Positions 21,001 through 24,000 of a stretch of DNA of 64,000 bases are shown in pieces (the first letter of the stretch is position 1; the number at the start of each line of letters is the position of its first letter). Position numbers: made by a program. Source of the stretch: Escherichia coli (GTDB taxonomy: Bacteria; Pseudomonadota; Gammaproteobacteria; Enterobacterales; Enterobacteriaceae); assembly GCF_001677475.2 (NCBI RefSeq), contig NZ_CP015229.1, one strand, 5' to 3'.

Positions 21001-24000
21001 CTGAACTCACGTTTTCTGAAGAGGCCGCTTTAGTAACTTCAGAAGGCGCATCTTTTTTCACCGCTGTTGGCGCGTTATCGTTGTTGTCGCACCCTGCCAG
21101 CGCCAGCATTAGCATGCAGGCGGCTACGCGTAACTTTTTCATTTTTCATCCCTGCCACAATGGCCCGTTAGCAACGTCGAATAATTATTATGCGTGAGAA
21201 TTTACGTTATGTAATTCAGTATCACGCCCATACAATCCGAATTTTAGTGAGAATTGTGGCTCAGACAGCCAAATCAGCCTCTTTTGCTTGTCGCCTTTCA
21301 CTAAACATCCGACAATTTAGCCTAACCCCGGCAAAAATGGAGATGCCTATGTCCACGACATGGTTTGTAGGAGCCGACTGGCTCGCCGAACATATTGATG
21401 ACCCGGAAATTCAGATTATCGATGCCCGCATGGCGTCGCCTGGACAGGAAGATCGTAACGTTGCTCAGGAGTATCTGAATGGACATATTCCCGGCGCAGT
21501 GTTTTTTGATATAGAAGCGCTTTCTGATCACACTTCCTCGCTTCCGCACATGCTGCCGCGCCCGGAAACGTTCGCCGTGGCGATGCGTGAATTAGGCATT
21601 AACCAGGATAAGCACCTGATTGTCTATGACGAAGGTAATCTTTTCTCAGCCCCACGAGCATGGTGGATGCTGCGCACCTTTGGTGTAGAGAAAGTGTCGA
21701 TTCTGGGGGGTGGACTTGCAGGCTGGCAGCGCGATGATCTGCTATTAGAAGAAGGCGCAGTAGAGCTGCCGGAAGGAGAGTTTAACGCCGCGTTTAATCC
21801 TGAAGCCGTGGTGAAAGTCACCGATGTGTTATTGGCAAGCCATGAAAATACGGCGCAAATTATTGATGCCCGCCCGGCTGCACGTTTTAACGCAGAAGTT
21901 GATGAGCCTCGCCCAGGTTTACGTCGCGGACATATTCCCGGTGCACTGAATGTTCCGTGGACGGAACTGGTGCGCGAAGGCGAACTAAAAACGACCGATG
22001 AACTGGATGCGATATTTTTTGGTCGCGGCGTCAGCTATGACAAACCAATTATTGTCAGTTGCGGCTCTGGTGTAACAGCAGCCGTGGTTTTGTTGGCACT
22101 CGCGACGCTGGATGTGCCAAACGTGAAACTGTACGACGGCGCATGGAGTGAATGGGGCGCACGGGCAGATTTACCGGTTGAGCCATTGAAATAAGCTTTT
22201 TACAGGCAATAAAAAACCGCCGAATTTGAACTGACCCCATAATGTTGGACGGTTTATATTAAGCGGCTATCAGGGCCTGGGTTCGGTACTCTACCGGACT
22301 CAGGCCTTTCAGTTTCTGTTTTATTCTTTCATGGTTGTAATAGTGGATGTAATTATCGATAGCCATGCGCAACTCGCTGATATTCTTGTGTTCCATCAGG
22401 TAAAAACACTCAGATTTCAGCGTGCCGAAGAAGCTTTCCATCACCGCATTGTCATGACAGTTCCCCTTCCTTGACATGCTCTGTTTCAGACCAGCCTCCT
22501 TAAGCCGGTTCTGATAATGCGCCATCTGATATTGCCAGCCCTGATCTGAGTGGAGCAGCGGGTATTCGTCTTTACCCAGTACAGATACAGCCTTCAACAG
22601 CATGTCATCCACCATCGACAGAAGAGGACGGGACGCCATCTGATACGCAACTATTTCTCCGTTATACAGATCCAGAACGGGGGACAGATACAGTTTTTCT
22701 CCGCTGATTTTAAATTCCGTGACATCTGTTACCCACTTCTGGTTGGGCTTATCCGCACTGAACTGCCGGTTCAGCACATTACCCGCCACTTTCCCATACC
22801 GGCCTCTGTAAGAGTTGTATTTCTTCCTTCTGATACAGCAGGTTAAATCTAACGCCTTCATTAACCTCTGAACCTTTTTATGGTTCAGTAAGCTTCCTTC
22901 CCGGCGGATAGCCAGCGTGATTCGCCTGTATCCATACCGTCCTTTATGTTTATGGAACAGCGTTAAAATCTGCCGCTTATCATCGGCATATTTGTCTGGT
23001 TTTTTACCGCTCGCCAGTTGCCAGTAGAACGTACTTCTCGCCAGCCCTGCCGCTTTTAACAAGCGCGCAAGAGGGAAGTCCGGCCTTAACTCATTCACGA
23101 TCTGCGTTTTATCCCGCGTTTTGACGTGCTTTTTTCCCTGAGCAAGGCCTGCAACTTTTTTAGATAAGCCACTTCAACACGCAGTTGTTCAAGTTCCTCT
23201 CGTTCATCATGGTTAAGAGGAGCCTGTAAAGAAGGTGCCGGGTTATTTTCAGGGCGTTCTGGCATCGTTTTTCTCCCGCGTCGGCTGTCAGTGAGGGCTT
23301 CTAATCCCCCTTCATCATACAGGCGTTCCCACAGAAGGACCGTGGAGAAAGCCGGAATAGTGAATTTTGCACAGACTTCGCGAACAGACAACCGGTGCTC
23401 ACGCATATGCAGGATAACGGACTCTTTAAAGACGGGAGAATAGGCGAAATGCCGGGTGGTAAGTCCGGCTTCGCCATGAAGCTTCCAGGCAGCAGTCCAC
23501 TTACGAACGGCACTGTGATCGATACCAAAACGCTTTGCAGTCGCTTTCTGCCCTTCCATGCCGGAAAGATAGTGCTGCACAACCTCAAGCTTAAAGCTGA
23601 GAGAATATTTACTCATAAAAAACTGCACCTTACTTCGTTGAGTGTCCAACTTTTGGGGTGCAGTTCAAATTTGGCGGTTTTTTATTGCTGGTCTGGTTCG
23701 CGGCCTTTCCAGCAGGTTGACTTGTGTTGCCGGAGCAACGCAGGCACCCCACAGTGCTTGCTATCGCGGCAATATCGCCAGTGGTGCTGTCGTGATGCGG
23801 TCTTCGCATGGACCGCACAATGAAGATACGGTGCTTTTGTATCGTACTTATTGTTTCTGGTGCGCTGTTAACCGAGGTAAATAATAACCGGAGTCTCTCC
23901 GGCAACAATTTATTGGTGGTTAACAACCTTCAGAACAGCAGGTAAGCCCGAATGCCGCCCTTTGGGGCGGCATATTTTAGATTATCCGGTTCTGTTTAAA

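Follow-up and report, generated by a model that had tools for sequence, protein, structure and literature searches.

The sseA palindrome and the ISEcB1 copy that splits it

We analyzed a 64,000-nucleotide stretch of an Escherichia coli genome (NCBI RefSeq assembly GCF_001677475.2, contig NZ_CP015229.1; hereafter the window), focusing on the spacer between sseA and sseB. Here, a copy of the insertion sequence (IS) ISEcB1 interrupts a palindrome that lies 11 nt downstream of the sseA stop codon, and is followed by what is left of timR and by the toxin gene timP (ryfA) (Table 1). An earlier note on this DNA had described an IS3-family element inserted at the exact centre of a palindromic hairpin. 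Both descriptions are borne out by the analysis below, although the range assigned to the element there, 22195-23976, covers the whole sseA-sseB spacer, the element itself being confined to 22227-23667.

The element starts with TGAACTG, ends with CAGTTCA and has 24-nt terminal inverted repeats; the pattern TGAACTG(N)ACCCCA(N3-4)GTTGGAC has two matches in the window, both of them ISEcB1 ends, where none would be expected. Its orfB frame scores 355.5 bits against the NCBIfam model NF033516 'IS3 family transposase' (cut-off 160) and matches the domains HTH_21, rve, rve_2 and rve_3. The element shows the further traits of the IS3 family, namely an N-terminal helix-turn-helix (HTH) domain combined with a DDE (rve) domain, overlapping -1 frames with an A_AAA_AAG heptamer whose position in the orfA reading frame was computed, TG...CA ends, a 3-4 bp duplication (AATT here) and a length of 1.2-1.55 kb (1,441 bp here). 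By megablast, 116 of 5,426 complete E. coli genomes contain ISEcB1, with a best match at least 99% identical in 93 records. RefSeq labels these copies 'IS3-like element ISEcB1 family transposase, programmed frameshift', and the 'programmed frameshift' is annotated in identical copies. The window copy is 99.9% identical to the RefSeq-named ISEcB1 (1-4 mismatches across nine copies compared), with 2 mismatches in 1,441 to the copies of the E. coli B-derived strain C2566 and others at the nuoN-yfbM and sseA sites. The window element is an intact ISEcB1, a catalogued member of the IS150 group of the IS3 family, and a distinct one because its protein identities to ISKpn1 (OrfB 58%, OrfA 40%), IS150 (57% and 33%) and IS1397 (53% and 36%) are low.

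The two 21-nt sequences flanking the element are mutually inverted, and a repeat search merges them with the terminal repeats into a 45-nt pair that is 87% complementary. Removal of the IS and one AATT yields the 38-nt palindrome GCAATAAAAAACCGCCGAATTTGGCGGTTTTTTATTGC. The sseA region was matched in 5,425 of the 5,426 complete E. coli genomes, and the exact 38-mer is present at the same position in all four unoccupied alleles that were fetched (K-12 MG1655, L002; GDSC2227PM, L001; 510016, L005; HCM-26C-1, L129). An IS-free allele devoid of the palindrome, which the earlier note had named as the observation that would overturn its reconstruction, was thus looked for in these four and not encountered. 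The plus-strand RNA of the 38-mer forms a hairpin with 18 pairs (-27.3 kcal/mol, z -6.0), a stability that none of 200 shuffles matched, and the minus-strand RNA reaches -25.6 kcal/mol (z -6.5). The four loop nucleotides, AAUU, coincide exactly with the duplicated target, and the insertion therefore lies at the exact dyad centre with a duplication of 4 bp, which confirms the duplication proposed previously and settles its size, left at 3-4 bp.

The same palindrome serves the opposite strand. The timR annotated in K-12 lies on the minus strand and extends from GCUGUGAAGCACCUGCG... to ...AAAAAACCGCCAAAUUCGGCGGUUUUUU, and because this annotation ends within the palindrome, we take the latter to be a bidirectional terminator that is also that of TimR. 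TimR is an antisense repressor of the ryfA-encoded TimP toxin, its 5' end pairs with the timP 5' untranslated region (UTR), and timR homologues end in intrinsic terminators (PMC7667032). The claim that the IS splits the sseA terminator is hence correct but incomplete, as the hairpin is not that of sseA alone. Read on the minus strand, the left arm corresponds to the 3' half of the TimR hairpin, U-run included, in its displaced position.

What remains of timR is doubly damaged, its distal terminator half being severed by the IS and its promoter lost through a 162-bp deletion. The missing 162 bp are present in IS-free alleles, where two GCAGGCACCCCACAGTG copies bracket the segment (compare L001 669-847), and the deletion takes both divergent promoters together with the first ~66 nt of ryfA. 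Rfam nevertheless has a full-length ryfA match at 23693-23978, in which the first ~65 positions of the model are aligned, with gaps, onto timR-antisense DNA. The Rfam match begins 26 nt from the IS, in keeping with the earlier placement of the element at the 5' edge of ryfA, whereas the true 5' end of the gene is deleted. In all 5,425 matching complete E. coli genomes, the best matches span the extra 162 bp, and the deletion is therefore private to the window lineage; no complete E. coli genome combines it with the IS orientation seen in the window.

Table 1. Positions of the features at the sseA-timP locus of the window
Feature	Position	Strand	Remarks
sseA (3-mercaptopyruvate sulfurtransferase)	21349..22194	+	open reading frame (ORF) list; RefSeq annotation of orthologous loci
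Left palindrome arm	22206..22226	.	GCAATAAAAAACCGCCGAATT; last 4 nt (22223-22226, AATT) are the left duplication copy
ISEcB1, complete copy	22227..23667	- (transposase strand)	1,441 bp, ends TG...CA
Right terminal inverted repeat (IRR, orfB end)	22227..22250	+	TGAACTGACCCCATAATGTTGGAC
orfB frame	22259..23170	-	HTH_21 and rve (DDE) catalytic domain; presumably expressed as an OrfAB fusion
orfA	23095..23616	-	173 aa, two HTH_28 domains
A_AAA_AAG -1 frameshift heptamer	23155..23161	-	in orfA reading frame
Terminator-like hairpin in IS left end	23614..23666	-	GAACUGCACC...GGUGCAGUUU and U-run
Left terminal inverted repeat (IRL, orfA end)	23644..23667	-	TGAACTGCACCCCAAAAGTTGGAC
Right palindrome arm	23668..23688	.	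AATTTGGCGGTTTTTTATTGC; first 4 nt (23668-23671) are the right AATT copy
timR body remnant (antitoxin small RNA, sRNA)	23668..23755	-	K-12 timR annotation/sequence; PMC7667032
17-bp repeat, single copy	23740..23756	+	GCAGGCACCCCACAGTG; TimR seed / timP 5' UTR target; deletion junction
timP (ryfA) toxin ORF	23820..23945	+	41 codons, intact, promoterless
ryfA/timP terminator hairpin	23952..23980	+	ATGCCGCCCTTTGGGGCGGCAT and ATTTT; unoccupied

Six independent insertions

We compared the window insertion with those of other ISEcB1 copies and of a 91.5%-identical Klebsiella variant, a set that comprises six independent events in five hairpins (Table 2). All six place the IS between the arms of a hairpin with a T-run, the centre of the 4-bp duplication lying at most 1.5 nt off the dyad axis, and all five hairpins share a stem top of CCGCC...GGCGG directly followed by the T-run. 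On either side, 0-3 nt separate the cut from CCGCC or GGCGG, and the two motifs are 6-9 nt apart. In a crude scan of the IS-free window, the CCGCC..GGCGGT motif occurred in one of 12 terminator-like hairpins, the occupied one. ISEcB1 thus inserts recurrently into the loops of extragenic palindromes, with the 4-bp duplication inside the loop. The sites are A-run/T-run terminator hairpins after sseA, nuoN and fumA, not repetitive extragenic palindromes (REP) or palindromic units (PU), and they do not resemble the PU sequences flanking the IS1397 and ISKpn1 copies that we fetched.

Table 2. Independent insertions of ISEcB1 and its Klebsiella variant
Event	Genome	Target	Flanks	Duplication
1	window	sseA palindrome	CCGCCGAATT/IS/AATTTGGCGG	AATT
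2	HKUOPY1 and BL21 family	sseA palindrome, opposite orientation	CCGCCAAATT/IS/AATTCGGCGG	AATT (right copy altered at one base in BL21)
3	510016	paralogous palindrome, duplicated timR unit	CCGCCAAAA/IS/AAAATCAGGCGG	AAAA
4	REL606, AST205, others	nuoN-yfbM terminator	GCCGCCGACATG/IS/CATGCTCGGCGGTTTTTTTT	CATG
5	19SZHZ869Rt	fumA-fumC terminator	GCCGCCCTTCGG/IS/TCGGGGCGGTTTTTTT	TCGG
6	Klebsiella aerogenes NCTC10006 (91.5%-identical IS)	nuoN terminator	CCGCCGAGTTTT/IS/TTTTCGGCGGTTTTTTT	TTTT

Together, these insertions make it very likely that ISEcB1 aims at the loops of intrinsic-terminator hairpins by a mechanism of the kind outlined here, and the six loop insertions lend support to the earlier suggestion of hairpin targeting of the type described for IS1397. 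Transposition would follow the copy-out/paste-in route of the IS3 family, as we infer from family membership only, with OrfAB, produced by -1 frameshifting, generating a circular IS copy that would integrate with a 3-4 bp staggered cut. Capture of the target is nonrandom and directed to the loop of short, G+C-rich hairpins with a T-run, that is, intrinsic terminators, those hit by ISEcB1 having the stem top CCGCC...GGCGG. The staggered cut sits on the dyad centre, such that the duplicated 4 bp are essentially the loop; in the window, the structure struck is the bidirectional terminator that serves sseA on the plus strand and TimR, the antitoxin sRNA, on the minus strand. The target would be recognized as two-fold symmetric, with dyad or hairpin geometry and the sequence preference at the stem top jointly positioning the cut.

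Orientation relative to the T-run was 4 versus 3 across taxa, with most sites bidirectional, and we make no claim of a bias; in the two unidirectional ISEcB1 cases, E. coli nuoN and fumA, the transposase runs antiparallel to the terminated gene. A plasmid search for further ISEcB1 sites returned one diverged copy and ISKpn1-like remnants only.

Several observations on individual copies complement this picture. Where the window strain has one timR/ryfA-like unit, K-12 (L002 1052-1089 and about 1440-1480) and many other strains have two in tandem, each with its own A-run/CCGCC/GGCGG/T-run palindrome. The timR locus is a hot spot, because ISEcB1 occupies both palindromes in different strains. In the nuoN copies of 510016 (L126) and CP025886.1 (L258), and also in L262, the right 12 nt are AAAATCAGGCGG, the flank of the timR-unit palindrome copy, not CATGCTCGGCGG, and there is no target duplication, a pattern suggestive of an exchange between IS copies, by gene conversion or recombination, that extended into the flank. 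HCM-26C-1 (L129) contains at 1516-2956 an IS whose flanks match different palindromes, palindrome 2 on the left and palindrome 1 on the right, again without a duplication and with an extra timR-like unit downstream, an arrangement consistent with recombination of two IS copies that duplicated this unit. REL606 (NC_012967.1) has a single ISEcB1, at nuoN, and BL21(DE3) (NC_012971.2) and its derivatives have a second one in the sseA palindrome, a difference that reflects either transposition or loss within the E. coli B laboratory lineage. Elsewhere in the window, between sseB and pepB, a sub-threshold Rfam naRNA4 match (24856-24900; 40 bits, gathering 59.5), typical of an element resembling REP or bacterial interspersed mosaic elements (BIME), is without ISEcB1.

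Relatives across phyla and alternative explanations

To place ISEcB1 among its relatives, we scanned one genome per species (GTDB) for the shared terminal-repeat pattern, obtaining 120 loci from many phyla, and metagenomes with the 26-nt left end as the query, obtaining 120 further loci, none of which is ISEcB1 proper. The OrfB proteins of the complete relatives are 34-62% identical to that of ISEcB1 (most 45-62%), and we therefore class them as IS150-group elements. In the genome set, 21 of 23 distinct complete insertions, ISEcB1 included, fall within stems of 7 or more pairs, as compared with 13% of random positions in the same loci, and 14 of 23 within stems of 8 or more pairs with a loop of at most 13 nt (0.9% of random positions); among the metagenome copies, 12 of 18 fall within stems of 6 or more pairs (8.6%), with the qualification for all these figures that the random background includes coding DNA and overstates the enrichment relative to intergenic DNA, and that sites within one genome are not fully independent, making significance only indicative. 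An A-run 5-20 nt from the junction was present in 49 of 98 one-sided flanks of the genome set, and a T-run at this distance in 61 of 109 unique IRL-side flanks of the metagenome set, against 10% of random positions in either case. The stems vary in sequence from site to site, as exemplified by the copies in Rhizobiaceae, Bacilli and Burkholderia turbans.

By extension, a large IS150-group branch, recognizable by its conserved end TGAACTG(N)ACCCCA(N3-4)GTTGGAC and represented in Proteobacteria, Bacilli, Bacteroidota, Chloroflexi and other phyla, may in general insert into terminator loops, guided largely by structure; we advance this generalization tentatively and rate it slightly below an even chance. 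The terminal 26 nt of the window copy, GTGTCCAACTTTTGGGGTGCAGTTCA (23642-23667), recur identically in metagenome ISs from soil, lake, marine and gut samples whose interiors are unrelated at the nucleotide level, indicating that the putative transposase binding end is unusually conserved across phyla.

For ISEcB1 itself, the serious rival is pure sequence read-out of B-form DNA, in which a transposase dimer would read two GGCGG(T)n half-sites; hairpin formation would be irrelevant, and the palindrome would count only through a two-fold symmetric transpososome. In favour of this reading, the CCGCC/GGCGG motif and T-run are common to all five ISEcB1 targets, duplex DNA is required for concerted integration at a stagger of 4 bp, and other DDE transposases favour symmetric G+C arms flanked by A/T tracts, as IS231A does with GGG-N5-CCC. 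A rigid half-site read-out, however, fits poorly with a motif-to-cut spacing that varies by 0-3 nt per side and an inter-motif spacer of 6-9 nt, and ISs with the same terminal repeats land between the arms of stems of unrelated sequence. We therefore think that a structural component is likelier than sequence read-out alone, which we judge unlikely, and ISEcB1 seems to combine a structural with a sequence requirement.

Survivorship offers a different account, according to which ISEcB1 inserts nearly at random and only copies in harmless places, for example where transcription units end, are retained. In its favour, insertion at terminators plausibly costs little, the timR/timP module of the window is already dead, and all of our data concern standing copies and no fresh events. 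Selection, however, has no means of bringing six events to within 1.5 nt of loop centres, nor does it account for one 4-nt loop being struck in both orientations with no insertion elsewhere in the sseA-timP spacer of several hundred bp, or for the presence of CCGCC..GGCGGT in all five target hairpins when only one in 12 terminator-like hairpins of the window has it, such that we hold this account to be very improbable. Finally, the idea that the inverted 21-nt flanks belong to a mobile element of ~1,483 bp with 45-nt terminal repeats, and that nothing was targeted, draws on the continuous inverted repeat and on BLAST matches to other copies that run 14-21 nt past the IS, but was rejected as next to impossible given the intact palindrome in K-12 and other genomes without the IS and the different flanks, with their own 4-bp duplications, of the fumA and nuoN copies, the longer matches being insertions into the same or similar hairpins.

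Targeting of terminator loops remains the favoured explanation, and several points weigh against it besides the composition of the random background. The number of independent ISEcB1 events is only six, with five hairpins recovered, and a look-up of the exact protein in the longest public contigs yielded only three ISEcB1 contexts. The REL606 copy has been called 'incomplete' (PMC7881107), although it is annotated as intact. Surviving insertions are filtered by selection, and the present data fit structural as well as sequence read-out. Among the relatives, there is no hairpin at the Bifidobacterium (L020) and Sphingomonadales (L023) copies, the copies of Bacteroides sp. OM05-12 (L041-L060) lie in one repeated sequence, not in assorted terminators, and several Neisseria copies adjoin one arm of wide loops.

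Two of these groups are described here in their own right. The ~19 contig-end copies of OM05-12 have flanks of two types only, ...AGTGAAGGCACTTTTTTT/ and ...CTCAATTCTCAACTAAAA/. The Neisseria relatives (~1,250 bp; L009-L013, L086-L099 and several of L135-L254) are located between inverted DNA-uptake sequences, which are Neisseria terminators (PMC1852404), often 2-4 nt past GGTCGTCTGAAA even when the loop measures 15-22 nt, so that one arm sets a noncentral position.

Consequences and comparison with known systems

In the window strain, both sseA and TimR transcripts are predicted to lose their terminator. Transcripts of sseA would read into the IS, antisense to the transposase, and the combination of the IS right end with the left half-hairpin was considered as a new sseA terminator and discarded, its fold being no better than shuffles (z -1.9). 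On the other side, the left end of ISEcB1 contains a terminator-like hairpin of its own (10 pairs, -20.6 kcal/mol, z -3.3, matched by none of 200 shuffles) that includes the very tip of the IS and stops 3 nt short of the orfA AUG. This hairpin would stop transcripts arriving from the timR side, any TimR transcript included, and is probably a barrier to read-through activation of the transposase. With the timR/timP promoters already gone in this strain, the insertion probably comes near to being neutral. The loss of the terminator matters for reading 3' ends or toxin-antitoxin status there.

ISEcB1 is present in the B/BL21 laboratory lineage, the extra copy of BL21 lying in the same sseA hairpin, and its apparent preference predicts CCGCC...GGCGG-T-run terminators as the sites of new copies. 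Should the pattern hold across the clade, IS150-group transposases would provide a natural system for the recognition of a DNA hairpin or dyad by a DDE enzyme, the low-cost persistence of these ISs would be explained, and terminators and sRNA 3' ends would be recurrent points of rearrangement. If terminator-loop insertion does characterize the whole branch, REP/PU targeting by IS1397 and ISKpn1 would become one particular form of a 'terminator safe-harbour' strategy, and the elements of the branch would systematically rewire 3' ends and sRNA terminators.

In a literature search, with ISfinder and the original papers on IS1397 and ISKpn1 lying outside it, we found the target of ISEcB1 stated nowhere, nor any report that IS150-group elements aim at terminators. 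IS1397 and ISKpn1 insert into REP/PU loops of E. coli and Klebsiella (PMC1525189, PMC3184786), with a specificity that resides in the transposase according to transposase swaps cited in PMC1525189; the targeting by ISEcB1 is deduced from sequence comparisons. The copies that we fetched agree, with IS1397 in a PU as GGATAAGACGCGCCA/IS/GCCAGCGTCGCATCC (duplication GCCA) and ISKpn1 in a Klebsiella PU (duplication TGC). Both have terminal repeats nearly identical to those of ISEcB1, TGAACTG/TGGACTG-(C)ACCCCA-N3-4-GTTGGAC, and all three share a length of 1,432-1,445 bp, an OrfA of 173 aa and a 3-4 bp duplication in a palindrome loop. Their target, however, is the PU, whereas that of ISEcB1 is a Rho-independent terminator hairpin composed of A-run, CCGCC, loop, GGCGG and T-run, and in its proteins ISEcB1 is no closer to ISKpn1 and IS1397 than to IS150. 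The comparison with IS1397 and IS150 drawn in the earlier note accordingly holds at the level of the IS150 group and not for the element or its target, ISEcB1 being neither of the two and its target not a REP/PU.

IS150 belongs to the same subgroup and has the same organization and the same -1 frameshift as ISEcB1. It differs in its terminal repeat, TGTACTGCACCCATTTT..., and its K-12 copy, at hokA/sokA, has no flanking inverted repeat; IS150 is not known as a hairpin-targeted element.

Outside the IS3 family, IS1272/TnSha1 (IS1182 family, staphylococci) targets hairpins, several of them terminators confirmed by RNA-seq, with little conservation of primary sequence at the targets and with repeated insertions in both orientations (PMC4923244). 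Unlike ISEcB1, it belongs to an unrelated family, cuts the stem, deletes part of the hairpin and produces no target duplication. IS621 and ISPpu9/10 of the IS110 family, which target REP, resemble ISEcB1 in using extragenic palindromes as low-cost landing sites, but are RNA-guided DEDD recombinases. Terminators are likewise low-cost landing sites for group IIC introns, in retrohoming, and for IS1630 of the IS30 family, with long duplications of the whole inverted repeat. ISEcB1 itself, loop targeting by IS1397 and ISKpn1, and terminator targeting by unrelated elements are thus established, and it is to this background that the insertions of ISEcB1 into terminator loops are to be added.

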